Source: a virus
Length of the DNA: 64,000 nt
IMG/VR virus record: IMGVR_UViG_3300037137_001673
Coordinates: 11,971 to 75,970 of that record
Strand: one strand, 5' to 3'
Numbering within the stretch: the stretch's first letter is position 1; the number at the start of each line of letters is the position of its first letter. The notes beneath the pieces were generated by a model. It was not told the DNA's origin. It did not search any database and was given only the letters and a program-made list of their open reading frames with translations. A program made the translations under genes and the position numbers. Below, one piece after another: positions 826 through 28,611 of the stretch.

Positions 826-3276
826 ATGCCAACTTTAAGCGAAAAATTTAATTATATAGAATATAGTGACGCAACAGATTTTACAAATACTTCTGATGGA
901 AGAATTCAACTTAAGCAATACTCTGATGATTTGATATTCTACGCTCCTTTTGATGCTGTTATGGACGCCAAGTATTCTACTGGAGACCCAACTGCTGTTA
1001 CAAGTGGTACTATCTCTATCACTAATTTTGGCGTGTTTGCTCAATATGCTTATTTTCAGAATAGCGGTCTAGCTCGTTATGATACTACAAACTTTGATAG
1101 TTTAACAAATGAAGGAACTGTAAATTTTAGGTTTAGAACAGGGTTTAATAACGATTCGGGCCAGCAAGATTTTCTTGGAACAAGTGTAACTCCAGGTGAT
1201 ACCAGATACTATTTTAAATTTTATGTAGGTGGAACTTTTACTGGAGCAGATAGTCAATGGGTTAGTTTAGTTCCAGGCGATACTATGGGTTCTATTAAAA
1301 ATAAAATTTATGTAAAAGTAAATCCTTATAATGCTGTTACTACACTATTACAAAATAATCAAATTAGAACAGTTGCTACAAATAATGGTGATAGTGTATT
1401 TTATTTACCTTCTACAGCAACTAATGATTTAATTGCTTTACTTGGAGGATTAGGCACTTCTGTTATACCAAATAGTCCTACTGCCACTTCTGTTGATTTT
1501 ATGCAGTTCTATAATGGATTAAATAATAACAGCAGAATAATTTTAACTCATACTGGTGATAGCTCCCATTTACAATTAAAAATGTATAGTTCTACTGGAA
1601 CACTAGTTGTTGATGAAGATTTTGGAATTTGGTCCAATCACTATAATCAATGGTATGATTTTGAACTTGCTTGGAATTCTTCTATAGTACAACTTTTTAT
1701 TGATGGAGTTTTATTTGGTGTAGCAATGACTGGCTTTGCTAGAGGAAGTGGTAACTATCTTTATTTACAAACTAATGCAACTGATTTCTATAGATTTGAT
1801 GAATTCATAGTTTATGATGTTCAAAAACATTCTGGTACTTTTGTAGTTCCAACTCTTGCTCTTTCTGCCTATTCAACAGATAATCCTTACCTTGATATAC
1901 ATCTTGGTAAAAGCCCAAAACTTACAGAAGTTCAGGATTTAAATTTAATATGTTCTACTGGTTGTTATTTTGTGGTAGAAATTGGTGACGCTTGGTATTA
2001 TTATATTGGTGGATCTTGGCAAGTATCTGATGCTACTTTTGCGCAAAGTTCAACTCCAGATTTAATGGAAACAAAATTTACCAGTCTTCTATTTAATGAA
2101 AATTTAGATCTTACTATTAGGGTAATTTTTCACTCTGATGGAGTAGCAAATGTTTGGTTAAGTGAAATAGAAATTGTTACACTTCAAGGAACTTCTGTTC
2201 AAGCGGTAGTAACTGGATTTGTAAGTTTATTGAGCCCTACAGATTTATCTACCAATTACAATATTTTACTATCGACTAATTTAGGTTCATCAACAGTTAA
2301 TTGTTCTACTGGAGCTGGAAATGTAACTGCTGTAACTTTAAGTGAAATTAAAGCAGCAATTTTAGGTTCCTCAGTTCTGGGACTGGCAATTCCATCAGAT
2401 GATGGGCTAGGACATTTAGTTTTAAAAACTTCTACTTATGGAGATAGTGCTTGGATTAGTGTAACAAATGCTGGAACTTTTGATGCACTTTCAATTATTT
2501 TTGGAGGAACTGCTTCTGCTATTGGAGTTACTCCACAGGGTTCAAGTATTGATTATTCAGAACTTTTTAGATATGTGCGCTCAAAATTAGGAGAACCAAC
2601 GCTTCCAGTAGAACTTACAGACGAACAACTTATGGATTGCCTAGCAGACGCTACATTCCACTACAACAGGTGGAGAAACTTCAAGGAAGAGTTAATTTAC
2701 ACAAGCCTATCTGGTGATGCCAAAAATGGTTACTTAATTCCTCCAGTTGTTGGTGGTGCAGATAATATACTAGAGATAATAGTAGCATCTCGCTATCCAT
2801 ATTCATTCTATGCTGGTAAGTCTGATGATATAATTGGAAATCTTTATGTTCAGTCTATATTTCATAAATGGAAAAGCGCTGGTTTATTGTCCGATATATT
2901 ATCTGATTATTATATGGTGATAAGTACAGCGGAAGACATAAACATAATTCTTGGAACTCAAGTTAAGTGGGAAATTATGAATGGTAGATTATTCATAACT
3001 CCTCCACCTAATTCTATGAATATAGGAATAAAATATAGAGGTGCTTTATCACCACAAGAAGTTGTTACTAATTACTGGGTGAGGAGAATGGTACTTGCTG
3101 AGGCAAAAGTAGTTCTGGGAAATATAAGAGATACTTTCAAAAGTGGTATACCGGGAGGCACTGAGATGATAATGCTCCGTGGCGCTGAACTCATAGCAGA
3201 AGGCAAAGAAGAAAAAGATGCATTAATAGAAGAAATGAAAAAGTCCAGCGAACCGCTACTGTTTGATTGGTTTTAG
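826..3276 (+). CDS. neck / head-tail adaptor (T4 gp13-like) with N-terminal LamG/concanavalin-like extension
   Basis: C-terminal ~240 aa (YVRSKLGEPTLPVELTDEQLMDCLADA...GGTEMIMLRGAELIAEGKEE) resembles gp13; N-terminal EGTVNF...WYDFELAW...LFIDG...FDEFIVYD is LamG-like. Confidence 0.75.
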   Translation: MPTLSEKFNYIEYSDATDFTNTSDGRIQLKQYSDDLIFYAPFDAVMDAKYSTGDPTAVTSGTISITNFGVFAQYAYFQNSGLARYDTTNFDSLTNEGTVNFRFRTGFNNDSGQQDFLGTSVTPGDTRYYFKFYVGGTFTGADSQWVSLVPGDTMGSIKNKIYVKVNPYNAVTTLLQNNQIRTVATNNGDSVFYLPSTATNDLIALLGGLGTSVIPNSPTATSVDFMQFYNGLNNNSRIILTHTGDSSHLQLKMYSSTGTLVVDEDFGIWSNHYNQWYDFELAWNSSIVQLFIDGVLFGVAMTGFARGSGNYLYLQTNATDFYRFDEFIVYDVQKHSGTFVVPTLALSAYSTDNPYLDIHLGKSPKLTEVQDLNLICSTGCYFVVEIGDAWYYYIGGSWQVSDATFAQSSTPDLMETKFTSLLFNENLDLTIRVIFHSDGVANVWLSEIEIVTLQGTSVQAVVTGFVSLLSPTDLSTNYNILLSTNLGSSTVNCSTGAGNVTAVTLSEIKAAILGSSVLGLAIPSDDGLGHLVLKTSTYGDSAWISVTNAGTFDALSIIFGGTASAIGVTPQGSSIDYSELFRYVRSKLGEPTLPVELTDEQLMDCLADATFHYNRWRNFKEELIYTSLSGDAKNGYLIPPVVGGADNILEIIVASRYPYSFYAGKSDDIIGNLYVQSIFHKWKSAGLLSDILSDYYMVISTAEDINIILGTQVKWEIMNGRLFITPPPNSMNIGIKYRGALSPQEVVTNYWVRRMVLAEAKVVLGNIRDTFKSGIPGGTEMIMLRGAELIAEGKEEKDALIEEMKKSSEPLLFDWF

Positions 3277-3306
3277 AGTTATTAGAGATTTTGTAAAGTT
3301 ATTTAT

Positions 3307-4749: not shown

Positions 4750-5214
4750 ATGGCTCTAACAGTTAACAATAAGGCAGATCGTGAAATTCTTTATAGATTG
4801 CTAGGAACAGCACAGGATGGAAGCTGGCAGGGTAAACCTGGGGATACAATGAAGTTGTGTCTCTATAAAGGTGGAAGAGCAATTGGTGTTGGAGATAGTA
4901 AGTATGGTCTCATAGAAAGTTCAGGATCTGGATATGCAAAAATTATTCTTGCTCCTAACTCTTGGGTAATTTCTACTACACTTCCCGCCAATGGTGATAC
5001 TAATATGGCATCTTACGCCCAGCAGACATTCACCTACACTGGCGCTGACTCTGTTGCGGGATACTATATGTCAACTATGAGAATGCGTGGATCACTTACA
5101 TCAGCAACTTCCGATAGCACAATTATGTGGAGGGAAGCATTCACAGATGGTCCATACATCATACCAGCTGGCGGTGGTACTATAAAAATTACTCCTCGCC
5201 TGATAATGAGGTAG
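4750..5214 (+). CDS. small virion fibre subunit
   Basis: SD AGGAG, two late motifs upstream; beta-rich 154 aa ending GGTIKITPRL, typical of phage fibre-associated proteins. Confidence 0.65.
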   Translation: MALTVNNKADREILYRLLGTAQDGSWQGKPGDTMKLCLYKGGRAIGVGDSKYGLIESSGSGYAKIILAPNSWVISTTLPANGDTNMASYAQQTFTYTGADSVAGYYMSTMRMRGSLTSATSDSTIMWREAFTDGPYIIPAGGGTIKITPRLIMR

Positions 5215-5298
5215 TCTACGCCAACACCCAAACGATTTTTTTGAGGTTTAAGTCCATTTTTGCTTGACAAAAATGGACTTTTTTATTATTATAGTCAC

Positions 5299-6012
5299 AT
5301 GGGTACAATATATATTATAGAAAATAAAATTAATGGAATGTGTTATGTGGGACAAACTACACAATCTTTTAATGATAGATTTAGGCAGCATAATCAATCG
5401 CATTCTTATATTGGAAATGCTTTACGCAAACATGGAGTTGCTAATTTTAATAGGATATTACTAGAAAATATATCAGAAGATAAAATGGATGAAGTAGAAA
5501 AAGAATGTATTGTAAAATACAACGCTATTTATCCTAATGGATATAATTTACAAGATGGTGGGTGTGGTAATAAGCATCAGCATCCAGAAACTAAACAAAA
5601 ATTAAGTAAAATACAAGAAGGTAAAATGGTTGGTGAACTTAATCCCTTCTTCGGTAAGCATCACACTGATGAAAGTAACATGAAAAATGCTGCTGCACAT
5701 ACTGGTAAGATTGGTGGTATGAATGGAATTGCCCAAACTGATGAAGCTAGGCATCTTATGTCTATTGCTAAAAAAGGTAATACTTATAGGCGTGGTTCTC
5801 ATCATACTGAAGAAGCAAAAGAGAAAAATCGTTTGGCTCATCTAGGTGTCATTCCTGTAAATAAAGGAATTCGTGTTCCACATTTGTGTCCAGTTTGTAA
5901 AAATCCAGTAAAAGAGAAATATGGTTTAAGGGGTGAGTTTCAAGGTTATCAAAAATCTTGTGGAAATTTTAATTATATAAAAAGTTTAAGAAAAGTTAAA
6001 TTATTGGTTTAA
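5299..6012 (+). CDS. GIY-YIG homing endonuclease with NUMOD3 repeats
   Basis: MGTIYIIEN...YVGQT; GKHHT/HHTEE repeats; C-terminal CPVC; start moved from 5260 to the ATG at 5299 by paralogue alignment; TTGACA promoter just upstream. Confidence 0.9.
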   Translation: MGTIYIIENKINGMCYVGQTTQSFNDRFRQHNQSHSYIGNALRKHGVANFNRILLENISEDKMDEVEKECIVKYNAIYPNGYNLQDGGCGNKHQHPETKQKLSKIQEGKMVGELNPFFGKHHTDESNMKNAAAHTGKIGGMNGIAQTDEARHLMSIAKKGNTYRRGSHHTEEAKEKNRLAHLGVIPVNKGIRVPHLCPVCKNPVKEKYGLRGEFQGYQKSCGNFNYIKSLRKVKLLV

Positions 6013-6032
6013 GTATTATTTTTTTCATTATT

Positions 6033-6065
6033 AAGAGCAATCATAATTGATTGCTCTTTTTTTTT
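6033..6065 (+). terminator. intrinsic terminator
   Basis: AAGAGCAATC-ATAATT-GATTGCTCTT plus T run; identical to 12909-12940. Confidence 0.8.
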
Positions 6066-6215
6066 CTGTAAAGTTAATTTTGAGGTTTTAATGAAATTAT
6101 TTTATTTGGCATTACTAATTAATGAATTCTTTTAAGCAGGATTTAGATATGCCATGGTCGGTAATCAAGTTGCTTGAACATCACCGCAGCCCGAGATATG
6201 GATAGAGGAGAATAA

Positions 6216-6416
6216 ATGACAAAACCTGAGGCGATTACTTTTCTTAATACTATAACACCAACAACGGTGAGTATGGTAACTATTGATGCCGTGAAGTGGG
6301 CAGATTTCAAAACTACAGTGTTAGCGATATTGGCCGATAACTCTTCTGATCCGAAATGGAAGGCGGCTGTTCTTGCTATGGATGCCATTGATAACGCTGC
6401 CGTAAAGTCAACGTAG
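6216..6416 (+). CDS. hypothetical protein
   Basis: 66 aa, SD GAGGAG. Confidence 0.6.
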   Translation: MTKPEAITFLNTITPTTVSMVTIDAVKWADFKTTVLAILADNSSDPKWKAAVLAMDAIDNAAVKST

Positions 6417-6426
6417 GTACAGGTAG

Positions 6427-7875
6427 ATGACTTACTATTGGGTTGCAGAACGCTATACGGGGGGGACAAAGAACGGAGGAGAATCTACCCCTTGGAATAA
6501 TTGGGCTGGTATAAACTGGACTACTATTTCAACCGCACTCAGCTCGGACAGTGTAACAATTTATTTTGATTCTCGCGGGGATTGGTCAGCGCAAGGTTCT
6601 GTGGCCGTCGGGTCTTCGGGTAATGCGAGTTATCGCCTCTACCTTTTGGGGGATGCGAAGTATTGCACAGGTACCTCTACTGTCACATGGTTCACTGAGG
6701 ATTCTCCAGGGGTTGGAAATACAGGAAACCGTGCGCTGTTTGGAGATACAATTTACACTGGGACTAACCGTGCTTACGTTACCATTAAGGGCTTTCATAT
6801 CCAGACGCCTTCATACACTGGGGTAGGAGACAATGGAGGTTCATCAGAAGTCAATACCTACATAACGGTTGATAATTGCTATGTGGAGGGACCGACAGGA
6901 GCAAGCCAACCGGGTATTAATTTCTCGCGCTTATCTACTGGGAGCCACGACATCATCGTTAGGTATTGCTATGTCTGGAAGTCAACAGCGGAAGCAGTAT
7001 ATATTGGGCACTCTTCAGAGATGGATAACTATCTAACGGGAGTGATTGTCGAGTATAACACACTGGTAGATTGTGGGACTAGTGGCGAAGGTGACATAGA
7101 CATCAAGCCAAATGTCGAAGCCCCCATCATCCGATACAACACCCACTATGATACTTCTCTCGCCGCTGCTTCTTGTGGTGTAGCTTGCTATGCTGATAAG
7201 GCCGAGATATACGGCAATAAGTTCTATACATTAAAAACGAAAGGCTCCGAGTGGGGTTGGGGCATCATGCTCACCAACTATGGTTCGGATGGGGGGACAC
7301 GGAAAGTAATCACATCGTGTTTGATCTATAACAATTTAATCTATTCAAATGAACTGGATGGGATTAAAATTGACGCTACGGGTGCTGGGGCTAACATGAC
7401 CGGCATCAAGATCAATAGCAACGTTATAGCATCGAATGCCAGATATGGAATTAGCACTGCTGTAGTTTCGACTATTACGATATCCGAGATGAAAAATAAC
7501 ATATTCTATAGCAATGTGAATTACGATGTTCAGTTTGTAAGTAGCGTGGTGATAACTTCGGCGAATAACAACTGCTGGTATCGCCCGAGTGGTAATAGTT
7601 GGTATTACCAAGGAGCAGCGCATACGTGGGCGGAATGGCAGGGGCATGGGTTTGATGCGGCGGGTGTGAACTCTGATCCACTATTTACCAATCCAGGCTC
7701 AGGTGTTTACACGTTGCAAGCGGGTTCTCCTGGATTAAATACAGGTGCCACTTTGGGATCACCATTCAATATAGACATTCTTGAAGTAGCGAGGCCCCAA
7801 GGAGCAGCATATGATATGGGGGCTTATGAAGCAGTATCGGGTAGCGGGACTAAATTCGTGATGGTGTTGAGGTAA
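6427..7875 (+). CDS. parallel beta-helix (pectin-lyase-like) virion protein / putative depolymerase
   Basis: PbH-type repeats (IYNNLIYSN, IFYSN); C-terminal DPLF...LQAGSP...RPQGAAYDMGAYE (choice-of-anchor-Q-like). Confidence 0.7.
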   Translation: MTYYWVAERYTGGTKNGGESTPWNNWAGINWTTISTALSSDSVTIYFDSRGDWSAQGSVAVGSSGNASYRLYLLGDAKYCTGTSTVTWFTEDSPGVGNTGNRALFGDTIYTGTNRAYVTIKGFHIQTPSYTGVGDNGGSSEVNTYITVDNCYVEGPTGASQPGINFSRLSTGSHDIIVRYCYVWKSTAEAVYIGHSSEMDNYLTGVIVEYNTLVDCGTSGEGDIDIKPNVEAPIIRYNTHYDTSLAAASCGVACYADKAEIYGNKFYTLKTKGSEWGWGIMLTNYGSDGGTRKVITSCLIYNNLIYSNELDGIKIDATGAGANMTGIKINSNVIASNARYGISTAVVSTITISEMKNNIFYSNVNYDVQFVSSVVITSANNNCWYRPSGNSWYYQGAAHTWAEWQGHGFDAAGVNSDPLFTNPGSGVYTLQAGSPGLNTGATLGSPFNIDILEVARPQGAAYDMGAYEAVSGSGTKFVMVLR

Positions 7876-7881
7876 TCAAAT

Positions 7882-10736: not shown

Positions 10737-10756
10737 TTTAATGTAAAGTTATAATT

Positions 10757-11461
10757 ATGACATTTTTAAGACAGAGTACAGCAAAGACAGTAAGTTTTGG
10801 TCCATTCGTAAATAAAACTGATGGGACTACGTTTCTAGCAGGTTTAGTATCTTCGCTAGATAATGGAACTACTGGAATTAAACTTTCTAAAAATGGTGCT
10901 GCTTTAACTATTAGACATGCAAGTGTTACAGCATCAACTTATGATACCTTTGGAAATTATAGAGTAACAATAGATACTACTGATACAAATACATTAGGCA
11001 CTATGAAGATGCAGTATGGAGATACAGCAGTATGTCTAACTGTATGGGATGATTTTACAATTCTTCCATCTAATGTTTATGATTCACTAATTCTTGGTGG
11101 TGGATATTTAAAAACTGATATTAGGTGGATAGCAGGAGATTCTGTAGCAAATAAACTAGTAACTGGTGATAGTGTTGCTAATAGAGTATGGGATATAACA
11201 AAAGCTAGTCATACAATATCTGGAACTTTTGGAGATCTAGCAACAAAAGCAGAAGTTGCTCATGCAGTAAGAGATGAAGTTATAGATAAAGGATATACTC
11301 TAGGACAACTCACTAGACTTATGGCAGCAGCATTGCTTGGAAAAGTTTCTGGTGGTGGCAGTAGTACGATCACCTTCCGTTCTATTGGAGATAGTATAAA
11401 TATAATTACAACTACGGTTGATGCTAGTGGAAATAGGCTGACAACTACTTTAAGTCCATGA
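10757..11461 (+). CDS. virion structural protein (paralogue of 11514)
   Basis: GPFV..DG, DTNTLG, C-terminal LMAAALLGKVSGGG...FRS...VDASGNR. Confidence 0.7.
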   Translation: MTFLRQSTAKTVSFGPFVNKTDGTTFLAGLVSSLDNGTTGIKLSKNGAALTIRHASVTASTYDTFGNYRVTIDTTDTNTLGTMKMQYGDTAVCLTVWDDFTILPSNVYDSLILGGGYLKTDIRWIAGDSVANKLVTGDSVANRVWDITKASHTISGTFGDLATKAEVAHAVRDEVIDKGYTLGQLTRLMAAALLGKVSGGGSSTITFRSIGDSINIITTTVDASGNRLTTTLSP

Positions 11462-11513
11462 CGCTAACATAAATTTTATTTAATCATCCTAACTTCTCTG
11501 TAAAGTTATTAGT

Positions 11514-12056
11514 ATGAAATTCTTAAGATATTCGACTGCATGTATAACTAATTTGGGTCCATTTGTAACTACAAGTAATGGCGACAGCGAAATGGTTGCC
11601 CTTACAATAGCACAAGCAGATGTAAGGATAAGTTATAATGGTGATTCATTTAGAACTGTAAATCATAACCAAGATGCTGTAAATCTTATTCATAACGAAC
11701 ATGGTTGGTATAAAGTAAAACTATCTACTACTGATACTGGAACTTATGGAAATGTAGTTATTGCTTGCCACAAACCTGGAGCACTAGCAGTTTGGCAAGA
11801 ATATGATGTTATTCCACAAATAATGTGGGACTATATGTTCTCTGGTGGTTCAACGGTCGCAATACTGGATGATGTAGTTGAGGGTGCTTATACCATGAGA
11901 CAAATTATGAAATTAATGGCAGCTGTATTATATGGAAAGGCCGTTGGTGGAGGTACTACAAATGTGAAATTTAGGTCTCTTGCCGATGACGCGGATAGAG
12001 TTTCAGCTGTCGTAGATTCAAGTGGGAATCGTTCATTGGTTTCACTCGTTCCATAA
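11514..12056 (+). CDS. virion structural protein (paralogue of 10757)
   Basis: GPFV, DTGTYG, LMAAVLYGKAVGGG...FRS...VDSSGNR. Confidence 0.7.
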   Translation: MKFLRYSTACITNLGPFVTTSNGDSEMVALTIAQADVRISYNGDSFRTVNHNQDAVNLIHNEHGWYKVKLSTTDTGTYGNVVIACHKPGALAVWQEYDVIPQIMWDYMFSGGSTVAILDDVVEGAYTMRQIMKLMAAVLYGKAVGGGTTNVKFRSLADDADRVSAVVDSSGNRSLVSLVP

Positions 12057-12091
12057 ATTTTTCACCACATATATAGTGTTGTAGATTTTTT

Positions 12092-12119
12092 AAGAACCTT
12101 TCATATGAAAGGTTCTTTT
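12092..12119 (+). terminator. hairpin/terminator upstream of GIY-YIG gene
   Basis: AAGAACCTTTC-ATAT-GAAAGGTTCTT; related hairpin at 28651-28678. Confidence 0.65.
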
Positions 12120-12133
12120 ATTTAGGAAGTGAT

Positions 12134-12898: not shown

Positions 12899-12908
12899 AA
12901 GTTTAATT

Positions 12909-12940
12909 AAGAGCAATCATAATTGATTGCTCTTTTTTTT
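12909..12940 (+). terminator. intrinsic terminator
   Basis: Identical hairpin to 6033-6065 plus T run. Confidence 0.8.
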
Positions 12941-12968
12941 GCGTAAAGATAATCATAAGGAATTTTAT

Positions 12969-13055: not shown

Positions 13056-13091
13056 ATATGGCTAGTTTAGTTTTAATGGAGAATAACAATT

Positions 13092-13541
13092 ATGGCATCA
13101 ATTATATATGATAGATTTTGGCTCTCACTTCCTGCGAAGCAGATTTCGTGGACGGGTGATTCCATCCAGTGCTCTCTAATAGATAGTACTTATGCACCTG
13201 TGAAAGCTGATAGTCTTTATCAATCTGGTAGAGATCCTTTTGATAGTGAAGTTACTGGAGCTGGATATACTAAACTTGGAAAACGTATTACTTCTCCTAC
13301 TATAACTTTGGGAACAACTCCTATGGTTGCTGGTGGTGATACTACTAGACTTTATGCTGATAGTGTATGGTGGGCAGCATCTACTATTACTGCTAGATAT
13401 GCAGTTTTGTGGGATGGAACTGATGCTACATTAAAGCGTCTATTATGTTGCTTTGATTTTGGTGCTGATAAAACCAGTTCCAGTGGTACTTTTACTCTAG
13501 TATGGAATCAATTAGGAATTATAACCTTGCAGCAAGGGTAA
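13092..13541 (+). CDS. small virion fibre subunit
   Basis: W..STITARYAVL...DFGADKTSSSGTFTLVW, a common phage structural-protein pattern. Confidence 0.7.
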   Translation: MASIIYDRFWLSLPAKQISWTGDSIQCSLIDSTYAPVKADSLYQSGRDPFDSEVTGAGYTKLGKRITSPTITLGTTPMVAGGDTTRLYADSVWWAASTITARYAVLWDGTDATLKRLLCCFDFGADKTSSSGTFTLVWNQLGIITLQQG

Positions 13542-13558
13542 ATAATGTAGGTTAATAA

Positions 13559-15938: not shown

Positions 15939-15967
15939 TTTGTAAAGTTATTCTAGAAGGTATAATT

Positions 15968-16795
15968 ATGGCTGTTACAACTTTGGATGCTGCTTTACAA
16001 GGTATGATGCTTCCCTCTGCTTTTTATAAGGCACAAGTTGGAACTCCTGTTGTTGGAACTATGTATTCCCAATGGGTAGCTCCCGGAAGTCCCGGAGCAG
16101 CAACTACTCTTCCCACTGGACTTTTAGCAGGACAATTTTTTACTTGTGCTGCTGCGCAAGTAGCTGGGCAACTAAAATTTTCTGCTGGTATTAGTGGTGA
16201 TACTTTTTATCTAGCAAGATTTACTGGTGCTTCTAATACTACTGGAACATTAATTCTTGCTGATAGGATTTGGGGTGATTCAGTTTCTGGTGTTCCTGTT
16301 GGAACACAAACAATTTATTCAGGTTCTTTTCCTAGGTCTGCTGGAATTGGTGGTGGCGATAGTTCTGGTACTGGTGTTCAGTTAGCAATTGAAGTTTATG
16401 CTAGTATTGGTGCTACTGCTTGCACTCCAAAAGTTACTTATGTTAATTCTGCTGGTACTGCCGGAGATACAGGAACTGCTGCTTATGCAGTTCCTTCTTC
16501 TGCTGTTGCTGGAACTTTTATTCCTATTAATTTAAAAGCAGGAGCATTTGGAGTAAGAAGTGTAACTGCTTACAATAATATGACTGCTAGAACGCAAGGT
16601 GGTGCCTTTGGAGTGGTAGCATATCGTCCATTAGCATATGTACCTTGCAATGTAGCTGGAGTTGCTGGTGTAGTTGATTTCTTGACTAGTGGATTTCCAA
16701 TTATGTTTCCCAATACCATTCCTTTTCTTATTTGGATGGCTGGAACTGCTACTGTACCTGTAATTGCTGGTAGTTTTTATTGGTGTTGCGGATAA
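15968..16795 (+). CDS. virion structural protein (tandem paralogue 1)
   Basis: GTLILADRIW, PINLKAGAFGVRSV, YRPLA; late motif upstream. Confidence 0.7.
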   Translation: MAVTTLDAALQGMMLPSAFYKAQVGTPVVGTMYSQWVAPGSPGAATTLPTGLLAGQFFTCAAAQVAGQLKFSAGISGDTFYLARFTGASNTTGTLILADRIWGDSVSGVPVGTQTIYSGSFPRSAGIGGGDSSGTGVQLAIEVYASIGATACTPKVTYVNSAGTAGDTGTAAYAVPSSAVAGTFIPINLKAGAFGVRSVTAYNNMTARTQGGAFGVVAYRPLAYVPCNVAGVAGVVDFLTSGFPIMFPNTIPFLIWMAGTATVPVIAGSFYWCCG

Positions 16796-16807
16796 AGGGA
16801 AATAACT

Positions 16808-17644
16808 TTGAGTATTACAACTATAAGTTCAGCAATTTCTTACATGTATGGTCCGCAAACATTTTTTAAAGTACCTACTCCTACTCCTGTTGTTGGAACT
16901 ATGTATTCACTTTGGACCGCAGCAGGAATGCCCGGAGCAGGAACCATTCCTCCCACTGGACTTTTAGCAGGACAATTTTTTACTTGTGCTGCTGCGCAAA
17001 TAACGGGACAAATATATTTTCAAAATCCTGCTGCTGGGGATACTACTTATTTAGCAAGATTTGCTGGGACTTGTAATACTTATGGAACATTAATTCTTGC
17101 TGATAGGATTTGGGGAGATTCAGTTTCTCCAGTTCGTATTGGAGCACAAGTAATAAATTCTGGTGCTTTTCCTAGGTCTGCTGGAATTGGTGGTGGCGAT
17201 AGTTCTGGTACTGGTGTTCAGTTAGCAATTGAAGTTTATACAACCTTGGGTGCTGCTGCTGCTACTCCAAAAGTTTCCTATGTGCCCGTTGGTGGTTCCA
17301 TGGGTTCAACTGGTGGAGATACAGGAGCTGCTGCTTACGCTGTACCTGCTACTGCTGCTGCTGGAACTTTTATTCCTATTAATTTAAAAGCAGGAGCATT
17401 TGGAGTGAAAGCAGTTACTGCTTACAATAACATGACTACTAAAACTTCTGGTGTTCTAGGTTTGGTTGCTTATCGTCCATTAGCATATATTCCTTGTTCG
17501 GCACCGGAAATTTATGGAGTAGCAGATTGCTTAACTGGTGGATTTCCGATTATGTTTCCTAATACCGTTCCAATGTTAATATGGATGGCTGGAACTGCTA
17601 CTGTTCCTGTAATTTCAGGCCAGTTTCAATTTACTCAAAATTAA
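16808..17644 (+). CDS. virion structural protein (tandem paralogue 2)
   Basis: Long identical blocks shared with 15968-16795; TTG start. Confidence 0.7.
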   Translation: MSITTISSAISYMYGPQTFFKVPTPTPVVGTMYSLWTAAGMPGAGTIPPTGLLAGQFFTCAAAQITGQIYFQNPAAGDTTYLARFAGTCNTYGTLILADRIWGDSVSPVRIGAQVINSGAFPRSAGIGGGDSSGTGVQLAIEVYTTLGAAAATPKVSYVPVGGSMGSTGGDTGAAAYAVPATAAAGTFIPINLKAGAFGVKAVTAYNNMTTKTSGVLGLVAYRPLAYIPCSAPEIYGVADCLTGGFPIMFPNTVPMLIWMAGTATVPVISGQFQFTQN

Positions 17645-17654
17645 TGGGAATGTT

Positions 17655-17960
17655 ATGGAAAAAATTTATGTAGGAATAGGAAGAATAACTGCTTCTGCTC
17701 CTGCGCAATTTTCAATTTACACAAAACATTTTATTTACAATCCATTTGTAAATCCTGTTACTTATAATTTTTTCATTTACAAAATTTTAGAAAATAAAAA
17801 AACTGCTGAAACATTCCCTATACCACAGGGAAATACTACTTGTATAAATTCTATTTCAATAGTTTCTGGTTCTGGTCCGCCTGTAAATAATTTTATTTAT
17901 AATGTTGAAAATTCTTATCGTTTTAATCCTTTATCAATAGGAGCAAATAATGGCTTCTAA
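17655..17960 (+). CDS. hypothetical virion-associated protein
   Basis: 101 aa, overlaps the start of the giant repeat gene. Confidence 0.55.
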   Translation: MEKIYVGIGRITASAPAQFSIYTKHFIYNPFVNPVTYNFFIYKILENKKTAETFPIPQGNTTCINSISIVSGSGPPVNNFIYNVENSYRFNPLSIGANNGF

Positions 17961-20900: not shown

Positions 20901-23900
20901 TTCTACTACTTTAAATATTCAGGAAGGTGATTTACTTGTAGCGACAAGTAGGTGGTATCCATCTACCTTATGGTCATCAGTTGCAGAAATTGGAGGTGCT
21001 AATAATTTCACATTGCTAATATTGCTTAATAATGGAGCTAGCAATCATTACGAACAGATTGGTTATAAAATTGCTGCTACTGCCAATGTTGCCGCTACAA
21101 TTAGAGCAACTTGGAACGCGAATACTTTTTGGAAAAATTTAATTGTTTTTCAGTTTAGACCTGCCCCTGGTTATTCAGTTTCTCTAGATCAAAATGTTAG
21201 CACTGCAAATGATGGATTGACTTGGCAAACACCAAATATTACAACTACCGACTTAGATGAAGTAGTATGTGCGATGGTTGCTCATTACCCATATGAGAAT
21301 TATCCACCTGTTCAAATTGCTGGTACTAATGCCGATCTTTATGTAAATGGTCCTTCTGGTGCTTTTGGTTTAAGCCAATTAAGTTATAGCATCTTTACTA
21401 GTATACAAACTGACATTTATGCTACTGGAACTTTCTCTTATCAGACAGATTTGTGGGGTTGCCAGATAATATCATTTAAGGCACTAGCAGAACATATCTA
21501 CAATCCTACTGGAATTGTAAATACTTCTGGACTTGCTACTACTGTAGGAAATACAAACCCTGTATATATTGCTAATGGAATTGTAAATACTTCTGGACTT
21601 GCTACTACTGAAGAATTTAATGCTTATGTTTATAACGCAACTGGAAGTGTAAATACTACTGGTTTTGCCTCGTTTAGTAGAGATACTATTTACAATGCAA
21701 TTGGAACAGTAAATACTTCTGGATTTGCTATAACTATAGGTTCTATAGCTGGTATATGGAATGCTACAGGAACTGTAAATACTTCTGGATTTGCTACAAC
21801 TGAAGAACTTGATGCTTATATTTGCAATCCAGTAGGAAGTGTAAATACTTCTGGAACTGCACAAATTACTCATAGTAATTACATTTATAATCCTACTGGA
21901 AGCATAATAACTTCTGGATTTGCCTTAGTTTCATCTGTTAGTGTTCCTTTTAGAATGCCTGATTTGATAGGTAAAGGAATTCTTTTTGGAGCACCAGCAA
22001 CTAAAAATAGTGTTACTCTTAATCAAAATACTGCTTTTAAAAGTATAGGAAAAATTTATACTCCTACAGTAGTTATTTATCCTACTCGTATTTATATAGC
22101 AAGAGGTGGAGTTGCTACTTCTGGTATTGCTCGCGTTAATTTTAGAAATTACACTTACAACGCAACTGGAAGTGTAAATACTTCTGGTGTTGCTAGAACT
22201 ATTTTTAAAAATTTTATTTACAATGGAACTGGAAGAGTAAATACTTCTGGTTTTGCTCTAACTATTGGTGCCTATAAACCAATTGGTTACTGGCCTATTT
22301 ACTACTGGGCAATTTACTGGCCTATACATTACTGGCCTGATTCAATGCCTACTGCTAATTATGTTTATGGCGCATTAGGAATTGTAAATACTTCTGGTGT
22401 TGCTGAAACAATTGGTCCTGTTGTTAAAACTTACAGTGCAACTGGAAGAATAAATACTTCTGGTTTTGCTACCACACAACAAGGTTATATCTATAATCCT
22501 ACTGGAAGAGTAAATACTTCTGGTTTTGCAGCAGGAATTATTTTTAATAACTATCAAAATGTCTTTAATGGAACTGGAAGGATAAGTACTTCTGGATTTG
22601 CTTTAACTATAGCAGTTAATGCTCCTTTTAAATTAACTACTTTAATAGGTAAGGGAATTCTTTTTGGAACTTTAGCTGGCACTGATATTTATCTAAAATC
22701 AAATGCAGCATTAAAGAGTTTTGGAAAACTTTACTCACCTATAGTTACTATTACCGCTACAGGTTATACTTATAATCCTACTGGAAGAGTTTTTACTTCT
22801 GGATTTGCTACAACTATAACTTCTGGTTATTCCAAGACTTACAATCCAACAGGAAGGGTATTAACTTCTAAATTTGCTCCTACTTCTGTAGATACTAAAA
22901 ACTTTATTTATAATGCTACTGGAAGTTCATCAACTTCTGGACTAGCAACTACTTTTGTATCTAAAGATTTTATTTATAATGCTACTGGAAGAGTTAATAC
23001 TTCTGGACTAGCAACTACTTTTGTATCTAAAGATTTTATTTATAATGCTATTGGAATTGTAAATACTTCTGGATTTGCCACAATTTTGTTAAGCACTAGA
23101 TACTTTATTTATAGTGCAGAAGTAGCAATTGTTATTACTTCTGGCTTTGCTACAACTTTATTAGTTACAAAAAATTTTGTTTATAATACTTCTGGAACTA
23201 TTTTAACTTCTGGGTTTGCTTCTACAATTGGAAATATAACTGCCACTTATAATCCTACTGGAAGAATAAATACTTCTGGAATTGCTACAACTGTACTAGG
23301 CACTTCTAATCAAATTTATAATCCTACTGGAAGAATAAATACTTCTGGATTTGCTACTATACAACAAGGTTATATTTATAATGTAACTGGAAGAATAAAT
23401 ACTTCTGGATTTGCTACTACTTTATTAAATACTTTGACTCCAGTTTATAACACTACTGGAAGTGTATTAACTTCTGGATTTGCTATAACTTCGTTAAGTA
23501 CAAGAAATTTCACGTATAATACTACTGGAAGAATAAATACTTCTGGAATTGCTACAACTGTACTAGGCACTTCTAATCAAATTTATAATCCTACTGGAAA
23601 AATAAATACTTCTGGACTTGCTACTACTTTAATAAGTTATAAGAACTTTATTTATAACGCAACTGGAATTATAAATACTTCTGGACTTGCTACAACTAAT
23701 AAAAATATTTATTCTCAATCTTATAATGCAACTGGAAGGGTAAATACTTCTGGTTTTGCCCTCGCTTTTGAATTTAATAATTATACTTACGAACCAAAAG
23801 GAAGTTCCACTACTTCTGGATTTGCTAGAACTTTAATAAATGCAAAGAACTTTATTTACAACGCAACTGGAAATATAAATACTTCTGGAACTCTTACTTT

Positions 23901-24699
23901 AGTAATTTCTTTCTTTGTAGTATTTTATGTAGCAATCGGAACAGTAAATACTTCTGGACTTGCTACTACTTTAATAAGTTATAAGAACTTTATTTACAAT
24001 GCAATCGGAACAGTAAATACTTCTGGACTTGCTACAACTTTATTAAATACAAAGAATTTTGTATATAATGGTACCGGAAGAATTCTTACTGCTGGATCTG
24101 CTAGTATAACTACATCTGTATTTATTCAAGCCTATATATCAATAGTAACTATAAGAACTTCTGGTCTTGCTACTACTTTAATAAGCTATAAGAATTTTAT
24201 TTATAACGCAACTGGAATTATAAATACTTCTGGATTTGCTAGAACTACAGAATTTGCTTTATATACTTTTAATACTACTGGAATTATAAATACTTCTGGA
24301 ACAGCACAGTATCAACGAGGATTTATTTATAAAGGAATTGGAATAATTAGAGCTAGTGGTAAAGCAAGTTCAGTTGGTTACATAACTGCTATTTATATAG
24401 GAAGAGGAACAATTAGAACCAGTGGATTTGCTCCTACTGGAAAGAACGAACATTCTTATATAGGAAATGGAATAATTCATACTTCTGGATTTGCTAAAAC
24501 ATCTCGTAAGAGAAAACGCTTTATTTCTTTCACGGAAGTAGTTGGTGACACAAGTATAAATTACTTTAATCTATTTACAGGGAAAGTTAAAGTAGGTTCT
24601 ACAGAAATTAGAAAATTATTAAAGGGAAAAAATTCTGGTAGAGAGGCTGACTTTTCTTATTTTGATGAATGGACCAAAGGCGATGGACGAAAAGAATGA
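17950..24699 (+). CDS. giant Ser/Thr-rich repeat protein, putative fibre scaffold
   Basis: 2249 aa made of many tens of ~19-23-aa units (F.YN[AP]TG...TSG.A.T), with two globular inserts. Confidence 0.75.
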   Translation: MASNGLGKFPFKSSWFTTTEIINDDDFCDIDHPLKNILQTFLFGAEAVYKTYNATGSSVTSGLATTSVDTKNFIYNATGSSSTSGSADKYRWSNYTGSGTATTSGLATTSKTTNTKETISTLKAKGVLFGTLASTQKSVTLNQVTILTGKGKLYEPTVKVNYSYNATGRVNTSGFANKVGTWQVAYLPRNFFPIYIPRNYFTDIYERLCFGFGSIITSGIATTSKTDAAASNFTYNATGSSSTSGSADKYRWSNYTGSGTATTSGSADKYRWSNYTGSGTVTTSGLATTQRDFTYNPTGTATTSGLATTSIGTKNFIYNATGSSSTSGSADKYRWSNYTGSGTVTTSGFTTTQRDFTYNATGTATTSGSADKYRWSNYTGSGTATTSGSADKYRWSNYTGSGTVTTSGLATTSADTKNFIYNATGTATTSGLATTEGATTLSYFGYQDGTDQLSIGAALARKGAGYVCPGTGSQAVKELSVQIISGTTNIRLGIYNVAGNLILQTSKKSTTGPGWLSWNENELTWFIQSTIIGGTTYKLAIANDETFVIAGNSSAGTLNYNLGDYTAALPDPEPASSTTGGEYNIKCGVTSTDYTMACAGSGTATTSGLATTSVDTKNFIYNATGSSVTSGLATTSVDTKNFIYNATGSSSTSGSADKYRWSNYTGSGTATTSGLGSVSLDTKNFTYNATGSSTTSGSADKYRWSNYTGSGTATTSGLATTEGAIYTKTYDPIGSSTTSGLATTSVDTKNFIYNAVGSSSTSGSADKYRWSNYTGSGTVTTSGFTTTQRDFTYNATGSSSTSGLATTSVDTKNFIYNATGTATTSGSADKYRWSNYTGSGTATTSGLGSVSLDTKNFTYNATGSSTTSKFAPTSLDTKNFIYNATGSSVTSGLATTSIGTKNFIYNATGSSSTSGTADKYHWSNYTGSGTVTTSGSADYIGPARIYNTTGGILTSGTANYVVPKFIFIATAQGVVDEYTTTVDCSTTLNIQEGDLLVATSRWYPSTLWSSVAEIGGANNFTLLILLNNGASNHYEQIGYKIAATANVAATIRATWNANTFWKNLIVFQFRPAPGYSVSLDQNVSTANDGLTWQTPNITTTDLDEVVCAMVAHYPYENYPPVQIAGTNADLYVNGPSGAFGLSQLSYSIFTSIQTDIYATGTFSYQTDLWGCQIISFKALAEHIYNPTGIVNTSGLATTVGNTNPVYIANGIVNTSGLATTEEFNAYVYNATGSVNTTGFASFSRDTIYNAIGTVNTSGFAITIGSIAGIWNATGTVNTSGFATTEELDAYICNPVGSVNTSGTAQITHSNYIYNPTGSIITSGFALVSSVSVPFRMPDLIGKGILFGAPATKNSVTLNQNTAFKSIGKIYTPTVVIYPTRIYIARGGVATSGIARVNFRNYTYNATGSVNTSGVARTIFKNFIYNGTGRVNTSGFALTIGAYKPIGYWPIYYWAIYWPIHYWPDSMPTANYVYGALGIVNTSGVAETIGPVVKTYSATGRINTSGFATTQQGYIYNPTGRVNTSGFAAGIIFNNYQNVFNGTGRISTSGFALTIAVNAPFKLTTLIGKGILFGTLAGTDIYLKSNAALKSFGKLYSPIVTITATGYTYNPTGRVFTSGFATTITSGYSKTYNPTGRVLTSKFAPTSVDTKNFIYNATGSSSTSGLATTFVSKDFIYNATGRVNTSGLATTFVSKDFIYNAIGIVNTSGFATILLSTRYFIYSAEVAIVITSGFATTLLVTKNFVYNTSGTILTSGFASTIGNITATYNPTGRINTSGIATTVLGTSNQIYNPTGRINTSGFATIQQGYIYNVTGRINTSGFATTLLNTLTPVYNTTGSVLTSGFAITSLSTRNFTYNTTGRINTSGIATTVLGTSNQIYNPTGKINTSGLATTLISYKNFIYNATGIINTSGLATTNKNIYSQSYNATGRVNTSGFALAFEFNNYTYEPKGSSTTSGFARTLINAKNFIYNATGNINTSGTLTLVISFFVVFYVAIGTVNTSGLATTLISYKNFIYNAIGTVNTSGLATTLLNTKNFVYNGTGRILTAGSASITTSVFIQAYISIVTIRTSGLATTLISYKNFIYNATGIINTSGFARTTEFALYTFNTTGIINTSGTAQYQRGFIYKGIGIIRASGKASSVGYITAIYIGRGTIRTSGFAPTGKNEHSYIGNGIIHTSGFAKTSRKRKRFISFTEVVGDTSINYFNLFTGKVKVGSTEIRKLLKGKNSGREADFSYFDEWTKGDGRKE
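18100..20760 (+). repeat. near-identical in-frame coding repeats
   Basis: Recurrent GCAGATAAATATCGCTGGTCTAATTATAC and ACTACTTCTGGACTTGCTACTACT blocks. Confidence 0.9.
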
Positions 24700-26159: not shown

Positions 26160-26645
26160 TTGGGAACAATTTATATACTAGAAAATAAAGTTAATGGTAA
26201 GTATTACGTAGGGCAAACTACTCAAGTATTTTATAAAAGAATGCGAGAACATTGTAAAAATAAAAAATTTTATATTGGGAATGCTTTAAGGAAATATGGA
26301 GAAGAGAATTTTTCCAAATTACTTCTTGAGAATGTTCCAGATGAAGAACTTAATTACTGGGAAATTCATTATATACAAGAATGTAATTCTGTTTCTCCAT
26401 TTGGGTATAATTTAACCTATGGTGGAGAAAGTGGAAGAAAATCAGAAGAAACTAGAAAGAAAATGAGTGAAGAACATAAAGGTGAAAAAAATCATATGTT
26501 TGGAAAACATCCTACAGAAGAATATAAAAAGAAATTGAGTGAAGCACATAAAGGACAAATTCCTTGGAATAAAGGAAAGCGTTATACAGAAGAAGATAAA
26601 TTAAAAATGAGTCGTTACAAAAAAACCGTTGTTTCTATTACATAG
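26160..26645 (+). CDS. GIY-YIG homing endonuclease (short)
   Basis: GTIYILENK...YVGQT, GYNLTYGG, NUMOD3-like tail; TTG start. Confidence 0.85.
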   Translation: MGTIYILENKVNGKYYVGQTTQVFYKRMREHCKNKKFYIGNALRKYGEENFSKLLLENVPDEELNYWEIHYIQECNSVSPFGYNLTYGGESGRKSEETRKKMSEEHKGEKNHMFGKHPTEEYKKKLSEAHKGQIPWNKGKRYTEEDKLKMSRYKKTVVSIT

Positions 26646-26647
26646 AT

Positions 26648-26833: not shown

Positions 26834-26949
26834 TTCCTACCTATAATTCTACGAAGACAAGGCGGTTTTTGTGTCACCATGTTTTTGTCAATAAATGCCT
26901 TTTTCTCCAATGTAAAGATAAAGAAGTATTTTAAATAGGAGGAAATGAT

Positions 26950-28611
26950 ATGGCAAAAAGCCCTTCAATAACAATTTTTGAGCAGGATAAATCATCCTAT
27001 ACAGTAACTTCAGCACAGACTATTCTAGCACTGGTTGGATATGCTACAAAAGGTATCATAAATACAGTAAAGTCAATAGCTTCAAAAACTGATTTCTTAA
27101 AAGCTTATGGAAATCCATCAACTACTTCCCCTTGGGGTTCTCTAACTGCTCTAAGAGGTTTCAACCAAACAGGTCAAGTTTTATTTGTTAGAGTTGGAAA
27201 TTTAGCTGCTGGTGATTCTTCTACTTGGCTTTCTTATGCCGAGAGGGTAATAAGAGGATATAAATTTACTAACTCAGCTGATTCAATTAAAATTTTATTT
27301 CAAGCAAAAGAATATGGTTCAGCTTTAAATGGTTCTTATGTTACTTTTACTCAACGAAGTAATCCTATTAATGGTGATAGTATTTATGATCTTAAATATT
27401 ATTATGGTGGAAATTTACAAGAGACTTATTCTGCCATTAGTTTTAAAATTGGAGATTCTAGATTTTTCCCAACACTAATAAATGCTCTTCCTGAAAATGG
27501 TGGTTCTAACTGGCTTTCAATCCAATATAAAGTCTGGAGTGGTGACTCAAGAGTTAGAGCAGTACCCGCTTCTACAACTGGAACAGTTACTACTTATTAT
27601 TTGGGGCAATCTTCTGGATATGGTGATTCAAATATTGCTCAATCTTGGAGAGGTGATAGTTGGCAAGCAGCAAGACCTGGAATGACAACTTGGTATACTT
27701 TTAGAACTGGTAAAGATGGAATTCTTCTAAATTCTGGAGATACATTGTTTACTAATCAATTAGCTACATCTGCAGCTTTAGCAAATCAAGAAATGTGGGA
27801 CTATCATATTCTTGCTTGCCCTGACAATGGAAATTCTGCAGTAGCAGATGCTGGTATTGCTCTAGCTGAATATAGAAAAGATTTCTTATTTTTGGTAGAT
27901 CCTCCTTTTGGAAAGACAACAACTAATGTTACTGCTTGGCATAATGGAACTGGTTCTCAAGGTAGAACTACCGTACTTAATAGTTCTTATGCTGCTACTT
28001 GGTGGCCTTGGCTTAAAGACTATAATCCGATAGCTGGACAATATGTGTGGTCTCCTCCTTCTACTTTCATAGCTGAAAAATTACTTGAAGTAGATAAGAA
28101 TTATGGACCTTGGTATGCACCAGCTGGTGATATAAGGGGAAAAATTCTAGCTTACGATTATGAGACTTCACCTTCTTTAAGTGACAGAGAAGTGCTTTAT
28201 GGTGATTTAAATGCCGTTAACCCAATAGTAAATTTTGCAGTAAAAGGTCTAGAAGTTTATGGACAGAAGACATTATTACGAGCAACTACTGCTCTTAATA
28301 GACTTAATGTTAGAAGAATGGTAATCTATGTTAAGAAGTTAATTAAGAAGGCAATGGATGGAATTGTATTTGAGCCACATAATGCTGACAGTTGGGCAAG
28401 GGCTAGAACGATTATTAACAGCATACTTGAACCTGTAAGACAAGCAAATGGACTAGCAGACTACAAAGTAACTATTGATGATAATACTAATACTCCTGAT
28501 TTAATAGCTCAAAGTATTATGAAAGGAATTATACAACTTGTTCCAGTTGGAACAATTGAAATCATAGAATTGACTATGCAAATTAAAGCAGCGGGATCAT
28601 CAATTTCATAA
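26950..28611 (+). CDS. contractile tail sheath protein (T4 gp18-like)
   Basis: SPSITIFEQD, LNSSYAATWWPW, PWYAPAG..RG, YGQKTL...LNRLNVRR, FEPHN; SD AGGAGG. Confidence 0.95.
   Translation: MAKSPSITIFEQDKSSYTVTSAQTILALVGYATKGIINTVKSIASKTDFLKAYGNPSTTSPWGSLTALRGFNQTGQVLFVRVGNLAAGDSSTWLSYAERVIRGYKFTNSADSIKILFQAKEYGSALNGSYVTFTQRSNPINGDSIYDLKYYYGGNLQETYSAISFKIGDSRFFPTLINALPENGGSNWLSIQYKVWSGDSRVRAVPASTTGTVTTYYLGQSSGYGDSNIAQSWRGDSWQAARPGMTTWYTFRTGKDGILLNSGDTLFTNQLATSAALANQEMWDYHILACPDNGNSAVADAGIALAEYRKDFLFLVDPPFGKTTTNVTAWHNGTGSQGRTTVLNSSYAATWWPWLKDYNPIAGQYVWSPPSTFIAEKLLEVDKNYGPWYAPAGDIRGKILAYDYETSPSLSDREVLYGDLNAVNPIVNFAVKGLEVYGQKTLLRATTALNRLNVRRMVIYVKKLIKKAMDGIVFEPHNADSWARARTIINSILEPVRQANGLADYKVTIDDNTNTPDLIAQSIMKGIIQLVPVGTIEIIELTMQIKAAGSSIS

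Follow-up and report, generated by a model that had tools for sequence, protein, structure and literature searches.

Why do unrelated proteins of one phage particle share the same three residues? The window (the whole stretch of 64,000 nucleotides analysed here, part of a 76-kb contig) encodes neck, fibre and tail proteins in which Gly or Ala, Asp, and Ser or Thr follow one another far more often than chance predicts. As judged from the sequence, GD[S/T] looks like a previously undescribed tag that is read by an enzyme or a binding partner. The GD[ST]-rich set is one clade of uncultured T4-like phages, whose sister clades share proteins without the tag, and in outward-facing proteins of the clade the excess of Gly-Asp-Ser/Thr is about ten times chance. 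The features are summarized in Table 1; genes are referred to by their first coordinate.

Table 1. Genes of the window that carry, lack or might read the tripeptide
Coordinates	Strand	Feature	[GA]D[ST] sites	Positions (aa)	Remarks
826..3276	+	Neck/head-tail adaptor protein, 816 aa	6	124, 141, 151, 188, 244, 539	PHROG 211 head-tail adaptor Ad2 match, aa 557-808
4750..5214	+	Small conserved neck-module protein, 154 aa	4	31, 48, 82, 99	
6427-7875, 7882-9168, 9168-10736, 13559-15226, 15261-15938	+	Untagged GC-richer fibre genes, between tagged ones			GC 0.41-0.48
10757..11461	+	Fibre-module small protein, 234 aa	4	88, 127, 137, 211	Paralogue of 11514
11514..12056	+	Fibre-module small protein, 180 aa	2	23, 43	
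13092..13541	+	Small protein, 149 aa	4	22, 39, 82, 89	PHROG 644 (function unknown)
15968..16795	+	Small protein, 275 aa	4	77, 103, 130, 166	Paralogue of 16808
16808..17644	+	Small protein, 278 aa	4	77, 103, 130, 170	Paralogue of 15968, 68% identity
17950..24699	+	Giant repeat protein, 2249 aa, untagged	2 (3.3 expected)		Native GC 0.33
26950..28611	+	Tail sheath, 553 aa	9	88, 110, 142, 168, 198, 225, 235, 263 (middle domain); 479	PHROG 23 tail sheath, E = 1.5e-58
35111..36262	-	Divergent RNA-ligase-family gene			Pfam RNA_ligase, E = 3.5e-14
41013..42959	-	B12-binding radical SAM C-methyltransferase (KedN5-like)			Considered as modifier, unsupported

Enrichment and specificity of the tripeptide

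The eight virion proteins contain 37 [GA]D[ST] sites in 2639 amino acids, which reproduces exactly, protein by protein, the count of the earlier note on this DNA. That note had roughly estimated about 5 sites by chance; when each protein is shuffled at constant composition, 4.9 +/- 2.1 sites are expected, and the highest of 5000 shuffles reached 15. Two pairs of paralogues (10757/11514 and 15968/16808) raise the raw count slightly and the eight proteins were chosen after the fact, both of which would speak for an artefact. Against this, 33 sites remain versus 4.6 expected when the paralogue 16808 is dropped, and the unselected set of all 21 plus-strand proteins holds 40 versus 13.0 +/- 3.5. 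The 13 plus-strand proteins outside the chosen eight have 3 sites versus 8.0 expected.

The excess is confined to an exact tripeptide. Among all tripeptides in the eight proteins, GDS ranks first (20 versus 1.2 expected, p = 3e-18) and GDT second (11 versus 1.4 expected, p = 3e-7), and there is no excess of GE[ST] (0 versus 1.8), GN[ST] (1 versus 4.0) or the equivalent turn former SD[ST]. Ser or Thr follows in 31 of 37 Gly-Asp pairs, compared with 19 of the 109 Asp residues that have no preceding Gly, and the 31 GD[ST] are 2.4 times the 12.7 predicted under a first-order Markov expectation. No positional residue preference was found around the tag outside its three residues.

All 31 occurrences of the corresponding DNA motif, GGNGAYWS, in the eight genes are in frame 0, with none in the five other frames, and the tag codons are mixed, with those for Ser, Thr and Gly all varying, indicating that the signal resides in the protein and not in the DNA. 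A methylation site, a Shine-Dalgarno-like GGTGAT and a recombination cassette are excluded as causes on these grounds. An all-against-all BLAST finds similarity only within the two paralogue pairs (27% identity and E = 2e-24 for 10757 and 11514), and hhalign gives a probability of 0.3% for the 4750 family against the neck; for 10757, no Pfam or PHROG family was found. With no similarity between families, irregular spacing and unrelated flanks, a hidden repeat or shared domain is ruled out. The suggestion that the sites were acquired convergently rather than spread as a repeat is thus borne out: the proteins are unrelated by profile comparison, and the enrichment arose by point acquisition. Known calcium-binding or catalytic GD motifs (RTX GGxGxD, EF-hand-like DxDxDG, SGNH GDS(L)) do not account for the tag either, as their extended consensus and their Pfam families are absent from the tagged proteins. 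We regard an artefact of composition, paralogy, hidden repeat domain or DNA-level motif as already refuted, with a negligible chance of being true.

Placement of the sites and their turnover among related phages

In the neck, no site lies in the C-terminal adaptor domain, which is the buried part of the protein. The AlphaFold2 (AF2) model of the neck is poor overall (mean pLDDT 59) and confident only for about residues 80-330; in it, five of the six sites are in coil that leads straight into a strand or helix, four of them in blocks of pLDDT about 72-90 and one, site 539, in a low-confidence block. The sheath model (pLDDT 88.8) matches T4 and other sheaths in the PDB, and by DSSP all nine sites are in coil or at the first residue of a strand or helix. 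The earlier note expected surface loops; the models show loops, and exposure itself is deduced from secondary structure and the sheath architecture.

Some proteins are untagged despite exposure, namely the beta-helix fibres and the giant protein 17950. The five GC-richer fibre genes, which have beta-helix/pectate-lyase-like Pfam matches and no homologues in the GD-poor genome G001, together hold one [GA]D[ST] site versus about 4 expected, confirming the single site given in the earlier note. Its proposal that recently captured modules have not yet gained the tag fits these genes but not 17950, which has native GC and is also untagged.

Among relatives, the tag is missing at the same columns in homologues of the same fold at about 40% identity. 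GD-poor necks (39-45% identity) have other residues at all six tag positions, and Ser or Thr follows Gly-Asp in 24 of 29 cases in the necks of rich phages versus 2 of 31 in poor ones (Fisher p = 2e-10); within the GD-rich clade, neck sites are gained and lost. The corresponding figures for the 4750 family are 16 of 17 in rich versus 0 of 10 in poor members. An invariant GD column of this family reads GDT in rich members and GDP in all four poor ones, and another column reads ADS in rich members and GET in two of the four GD-poor members. In the 15968 homologue of the GD-rich locus L014 (47% identity), Gly-Asp precedes Ser or Thr in 4 of 4 cases. Major head proteins at least 60% identical to that of this phage have 2-3 sites each, except for 1 in this phage and L074, and those less than 60% identical have 0 in nearly all cases.

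Sheaths of rich phages carry 5-13 GD[ST] versus 0-3 in poor ones; P0115, a sheath of the same length that aligns over its whole length, has one only. Conservation of the tag columns across 37 GD-rich homologues is 87-92%; the remainder of the domain reaches 53% and the flanks 44%. Ser and Thr replace each other freely within the tag columns. Nine sheath sites had been noted earlier, eight of them in the middle domain, and both figures stand. The ninth, ADS at residue 479, is conserved in all sheath homologues and belongs to the conserved core rather than to the tag, because it is kept in GD-poor sheaths too. Alignment with homologues, put forward earlier as a check, thus finds ADS 479 alone kept in all, and the sites not conserved in distant homologues of the same fold. 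A tree of the sheath core requires at least two changes of tag state, and in both the 650-aa and the 758/900-aa GD-poor groups the necks are untagged. The GD-rich sheath domain was found in no cultured phage. P0006, P0011 and P0015 are encoded on GD-rich contigs of 175-259 kb.

The whole GD-poor genome G001 (201 kb) has 36 sites versus 32.4 expected, and no replacement tag was found in GD-poor clades. In the GD-rich phage G014, by comparison, three large, unrelated proteins without homologues in this contig, and with only one weak partial match in G001, have Gly-Asp tagged in 14 of 16, 12 of 15 and 10 of 17 cases, again with irregular spacing and unrelated flanks. GD-rich and GD-poor phages both occur in metagenome 3300035698; their physical surroundings, being shared, do not account for why only some carry the tag. 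The joint presence or absence of the tag in neck, 4750 family, head protein and sheath favours a trans-acting reader. A scan of genome contigs returned only an 11.5-kb phage contig binned into an archaeal MAG, and the neck was not found elsewhere in that MAG.

Modification, binding or capping

Our tentative reading is that GD[S/T] is a selected linear tag, most likely a sequon for covalent modification by a phage- or host-encoded enzyme. GD[S/T], occasionally AD[S/T], would be kept by selection on outward-facing parts of the virion: the outer domain of the sheath, the N-terminal part of the neck, the variable region of the head protein and the small and large fibre-module proteins. An enzyme from elsewhere in the phage genome or from the host would recognise Gly-Asp-Ser/Thr in exposed loops that enter strands or helices, and would coat the particle by covalent modification of the Asp or of the hydroxyl residue, the latter by glycosylation or another adduct. 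We infer the existence of a reader, its being an enzyme and its chemistry from the enrichment, specificity, conservation, site turnover and concerted presence or absence of the tag, which favours a trans-acting reader with a modifying enzyme as the most plausible kind. The earlier proposal of an enzyme that modifies Ser/Thr in GD[ST] is upheld as to a real enrichment and, through the clades, a trans-acting cause, but not by the finding of a transferase.

The same evidence for a trans-acting reader applies to a non-covalent docking or binding motif, whose loops would be read, unmodified, by a common partner such as a decoration, cement or fibre-scaffold protein, an assembly chaperone, or a cation or polysaccharide ligand that aids adhesion of the particle. 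It would also suit the location of the small tagged proteins in the fibre and scaffold module and the failure to find a modifying enzyme on the contig or among the ORFs scanned on related contigs. We nevertheless consider docking improbable: a tripeptide with free flanks offers little for another protein to dock on, no one partner is known that contacts sites on head, neck, sheath and fibres alike, and giant scaffold-like proteins of similar size occur in GD-poor phages too (L002, 2310 aa; G001, 2468 aa). A lone Asp and hydroxyl cannot make a metal site, and the turnover in the neck speaks against fixed multi-loop sites. Less probable still is a pure turn or capping motif (Asx/ST turn), a habitual solution of this lineage that no reader recognises. 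The consistent position just before strands or helices in the neck and sheath models fits this role too, ADS 479 is such a cap, and GET in place of ADS in the 4750 family agrees with it. However, the same folds in sister clades carry unrelated residues at these columns, the equivalent turn formers are not enriched, new sites arise as exactly GD[ST] in unrelated proteins, and environment, given the shared metagenome, is no explanation.

If GD[S/T] is a sequon, what does it resemble? To our knowledge, modification across the whole virion has been established in tailed phages only for glycosylated mycobacteriophages. As related in PMC12619734, Freeman et al. (2023, Cell Host Microbe; PMC10527164) describe phage-encoded glycosyltransferases that glycosylate Ser/Thr of the structural proteins; the glycans are attached at the C-termini of the subunits of capsid and tail tube, and the genes for the enzymes adjoin structural genes. 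The proposed GD[S/T] coat would likewise be a covalent one, borne by Ser/Thr residues in structural proteins of cytoplasmic origin. It differs in that its sites are internal loops with an exact tripeptide, on sheath, neck, head and fibre proteins, and in that no glycosyltransferase was found here (76-kb contig and 27 ORFs of fragmentary relatives).

The general O-glycosylation motif of Bacteroidota, reportedly D-(S/T)-(A/I/L/V/M/T) as Fletcher et al. are said to have defined it in 2009, is also a three-residue motif in many unrelated proteins with Asp directly before Ser/Thr (37 of 37 sites here). Its constraint, however, lies on the residue after S/T and leaves the one before Asp free, whereas GD[S/T] requires Gly (or Ala) before Asp and leaves the residue after S/T free. 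The earlier note had already remarked on this freedom, and over 366 sites in GD-rich proteins it holds: A/I/L/V/M/T follow S/T at 45% versus a 40% background, with N and W the most enriched residues, and the Bacteroidota sequon is rejected on this ground. Bacteroidota O-glycosylation, moreover, takes place in the periplasm, on exported proteins, whereas tailed-phage virion proteins are folded and assembled in the cytoplasm; this argues against such a system. Closer in behaviour are the N-x-S/T sequons of eukaryotic viral glycoproteins and the atypical sequons of the chlorovirus PBCV-1 capsid protein: conserved tripeptides in variable surface loops, with S/T exchange and gain and loss of sites, confined to systems that possess the machinery to read them. 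They differ from GD[S/T] in residues, chemistry, host domain and enzymes, and we know of no such system described for tailed phages.

A broader and, in our view, rather unlikely generalization is that tailed phages use clade-specific tripeptide sequons, GD[S/T] being one, that mark the whole exposed particle for a dedicated modification system, with the reader a new enzyme family among unannotated clade-specific genes. Loss of such a reader would relax selection on all sites at once, which would account for sister clades lacking the tag in all these proteins together. Should GD[S/T] prove to be a sequon, tailed phages would have their first defined sequence code for modification of the whole virion, one that could be read straight from genomes and would help to predict which environmental phages coat their particles, and where; phylogenetic profiling of tag-rich and tag-poor clades would be a handle for finding the enzyme. 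Coats of this kind matter for adsorption and particle stability, for evading host sensors that detect structural proteins, and for how immune systems recognise therapeutic phages. Even if the reader is a binding partner, a motif whose gain and loss are coordinated among head, neck, sheath and fibre proteins would be a new co-evolution signal in virion architecture.

Candidate genes for a reader

The window had been said to show no transferase, and the outcome is the same across the 76-kb contig: searches of Pfam, PHROGs and NCBIfam found no glycosyltransferase, kinase or other protein-modifying enzyme. None was found either in 27 ORFs scanned on G012, G013, G014, L013 and L014, mostly the larger GD-rich-only ORFs of G012 and G013; the GD-rich contigs searched are fragments, at most 38% complete, and the absence holds for these rather than for whole genomes. 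The contrast between clades reflects no more than one or two changes of state in evolution, and any other trait peculiar to a clade would therefore correlate with the tag. Few genes occur in GD-rich contigs and in no GD-poor sequence examined. The most widespread of them, 35111, occurs in G009, G012, L012 and L016 but nowhere in the GD-poor sequence examined, which includes G001. No PDB relative was found by sequence, and this RNA-ligase-like gene was rejected as reader: it has co-occurrence with the rich clade only and no link to protein modification. The Cys-motif paralogues and the M20 peptidase beside the sheath gene occur in both clades and gave no family or Atlas lead.

The radical SAM gene 41013 is also absent from G001. 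It was set aside as modifier since 42%-identical homologues occur in two other huge phages without GD[ST] enrichment; the B12-binding radical SAM protein of the GD-rich G012 is only 20% identical to it. A thymidylate-synthase-like gene lies beside 41013, and its relatives neighbour DNA methylases, a PurM-like gene and a zeta-like kinase, suggesting a role in nucleic-acid modification instead.

Over-representation of GD[ST] in virion proteins

The viral contig consists of 75,970 bp with a G+C content of 33.6%, the window being its final 64 kb, and it represents part of the genome of a T4-like myophage that is uncultured. The nearest cultured phages have the sheath core alone in common with it, at 27-34% identity. 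Its homing endonucleases comprise three mutually paralogous genes (43-47% identity), two GIY-YIG/NUMOD3 and two HNH genes, and many of them split the structural module.

Features of the contig, with one locus of a related phage (window coordinates unless a locus is named)
Feature	Position	Strand	Remark
T4-type prohead protease, scaffold protein, major head protein	upstream of window		
Homing endonucleases	3-371 and 45442-46086; 39186-39851 and 40329-40943	-	
Neck/adaptor protein	826		
Fibre module	4750-24699		homing endonucleases interspersed
Homing endonucleases	5260-6012, 12134-12898, 26160-26645	+	
Gene 9168	9168-10736		TSG/FIYNA repeats at C-terminus
Gene 15261	15261-15938		free-standing; paralogue of aa 962-1184 of the 17950 protein
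Gene 17655	17655-17960		TSG/FIYNA repeats
Giant repeat protein 17950	17950-24699	+	2249 aa, made of short repeats (TSG, FIYNA)
gp15-like protein	25517		
Tail sheath	26950-28611		
Operon	28761-36262	-	convergent with sheath gene; three family-less paralogues, M20-type peptidase, RNA-ligase-family protein
Divergent RNA-ligase-family gene	35111	-	in operon 28761-36262
KedN5-like B12-radical SAM C-methyltransferase	41013-42959	-	
PTH2-type peptidyl-tRNA hydrolase	47115-47510	-	phage-encoded; Pfam E = 2e-34; near tRNA region
Thymidylate-synthase-like gene	62689-63600	-	
Three large proteins (1151, 628, 576 aa)	L126:1208-8996		contig G014 (IMGVR_UViG_3300033153_005734); adjoin neck gene

The enrichment of GD[ST] (occasionally AD[ST]) reported in the earlier note is confirmed and strengthened. 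All of its per-protein counts proved exact on recount, and the excess holds against composition-preserving shuffles: the eight tagged proteins (826, 4750, 10757, 11514, 13092, 15968, 16808 and the sheath) contain 37 [GA]D[ST] sites versus 4.9 ± 2.1 expected (n = 5000, maximum 15), or 33 versus 4.6 with one paralogue removed. Without any selection, all 21 plus-strand proteins have 40 sites versus 13.0 ± 3.5. The most over-represented tripeptides overall are GDS (20 versus 1.2, p = 3e-18) and then GDT (11 versus 1.4), and the observed number is 2.4 times the first-order Markov expectation. Ser or Thr follows 31/37 Gly-Asp pairs and 19/109 other Asp residues; neither GE[ST] nor GN[ST] is enriched in the eight proteins, and no residue constraint was found at the positions outside GD[ST]. 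At the DNA level, GGNGAYWS was counted 31 times in the coding frame of the eight genes and 0 times in the remaining five frames; Gly, Ser and Thr codons are all mixed at the tag sites, and these results together indicate selection on the peptide.

The claim that these are unrelated proteins rather than carriers of a repeat is upheld. BLAST among the eight found two paralogue pairs (10757/11514 and 15968/16808) and nothing else, profile comparison of the 4750 and neck families gave a probability of 0.3%, and the sites have irregular spacing and unrelated flanks.

Distribution of the tag among related phages

The comparison set consisted of IMG/VR and JGI loci around sheath and head-protein homologues, plus four whole GD-rich contigs. 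Comparison of clades is decisive: in one phage, the tag is present or absent jointly across unrelated proteins. GD is followed by Ser or Thr in 24/29 cases in the necks of tag-rich phages (those with the enrichment) versus 2/31 in eight tag-poor necks (Fisher p = 2e-10), which are 39-45% identical, align end to end and lack GD[ST] at every one of the six positions that are tagged in the 826 protein. In the 4750 family the proportions are 16/17 in rich versus 0/10 in poor members, and an invariant GD column reads GDT in the former and GDP in all four of the latter. Head proteins at least 60% identical to that of this phage have 2-3 GD[ST] in every phage, except for just one in this phage and in locus L074; nearly all those below 60% have none. 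A 201-kb tag-poor genome (G001) contains 36 GD[ST] versus 32.4 expected, and no replacement tripeptide was found in the tag-poor clades. Necks are untagged in both poor groups (sheaths of about 650 aa and of 758/900 aa). On the sheath-core tree, tag-rich members make up a basal grade, and at least two changes are needed to account for the poor state; one metagenome (IMG 3300035698) contains both rich and poor phages.

The sheath search returned 161 relatives. Among the 120 matches listed, sheaths of the same 535-580-aa architecture have 5-13 GD[ST] each, the only exceptions being the homologues P0115 (542 aa, 1 site) and P0109 (561 aa, 0), and sheaths whose middle domains differ (about 650, 760 or 900 aa) have 0-4, which is the chance level. 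Conservation across 37 tag-rich sheaths is 87-92% at the eight tag columns, compared with 53% for the remainder of the domain and 44% for the three flanking residues on each side, and Ser and Thr exchange freely at a given column. ADS 479, which is present across all sheaths, tag-poor included, simply caps a helix in the core. The AF2 model of the sheath (pLDDT 88.8), which resembles T4 and other sheaths, places every site within the inserted middle domains, either in coil or where a strand or helix begins, on its first residue. In solved sheaths, inserted middle domains point outward.

Within the rich clade the tag shows sequon-like behaviour. There is turnover of neck sites, the 826 protein having only about two in common with a 48%-identical neck that carries 13, and the C-terminal adaptor domain contains 0 of about 25 neck sites. 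The densest tagging seen is in the three large proteins of G014, a contig of a related tag-rich phage, with 14/16, 12/15 and 10/17 GD pairs tagged in the 576-, 628- and 1151-aa proteins (36 sites in total). They belong to no Pfam family and have no homologues in this contig; their sole match in G001 is weak (1151-aa protein, 26% identity over 260 residues). On the same contigs the tag is missing from portal-sized, terminase-sized and replication proteins. Another GD-rich phage fragment, the 11.5-kb locus L067 (NZBH01000013.1, "MAG: archaeon isolate ARS1414"), lies within an archaeal MAG and agrees with IMG/VR locus L006 in length, in the coordinates of its sheath and in its percent identity to the query; it was probably mis-binned.

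Candidate readers of the tag

The clade contrast, together with the sequon-like behaviour, points to a reader that acts in trans and, where present, keeps the tripeptide exact on exposed loops. The positions of the sites would agree with a pure role in turns or capping, but the same folds in sister clades lack the sites, and equivalent turn formers are not enriched. The earlier note's interpretation finds partial support: the existence of a reader is strongly implied, and modification of the tag sites is plausible but unproven. The suggestion that recently captured genes have not yet been tagged is in keeping with the GC-rich fibres; the giant 17950 protein, which has native GC, does not fit it.

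The Bacteroidota O-glycosylation motif restricts the residue after Asp-Ser/Thr, and its substrates are exported proteins. The Asp-Ser/Thr pair is common to both systems, but the following residue is free here (45% versus 40% background), as the earlier note had stated. To our knowledge, the sole established precedent for a phage coat is the glycosylation of mycobacteriophage virions. As cited in PMC12619734, it involves subunit C-termini and adjacent glycosyltransferase genes (PMC10527164). Literature searches found no description of a tag such as GD[ST].

Searches with Pfam, PHROGs and NCBIfam detected neither a glycosyltransferase nor a kinase nor a comparable enzyme on the contig, in line with the earlier report of no transferase in the window, and none among 27 ORFs of related contigs (mostly the larger ORFs that occur in the rich clade only, from G012 and G013, two contigs of tag-rich phages); these negatives apply to GD-rich contigs that are all fragments and reach a completeness of 38% at most. 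Membership of the rich clade is matched best by the RNA-ligase-family gene, found in GD-rich contigs only; nothing known connects it with protein modification, and it was rejected as reader. The paralogues and M20-type peptidase of its operon are present in rich and poor clades alike. The B12-radical SAM gene, missing in G001, was rejected as tag modifier since two further huge phages carry homologues of it without showing GD[ST] enrichment; its gene neighbourhood suggests a role in nucleic-acid modification. Related GD-rich contigs encode DNA methylases, a PurM-like protein and a zeta-toxin-like kinase, which, with the B12-radical SAM and thymidylate-synthase-like genes, may constitute a nucleic-acid hypermodification pathway.
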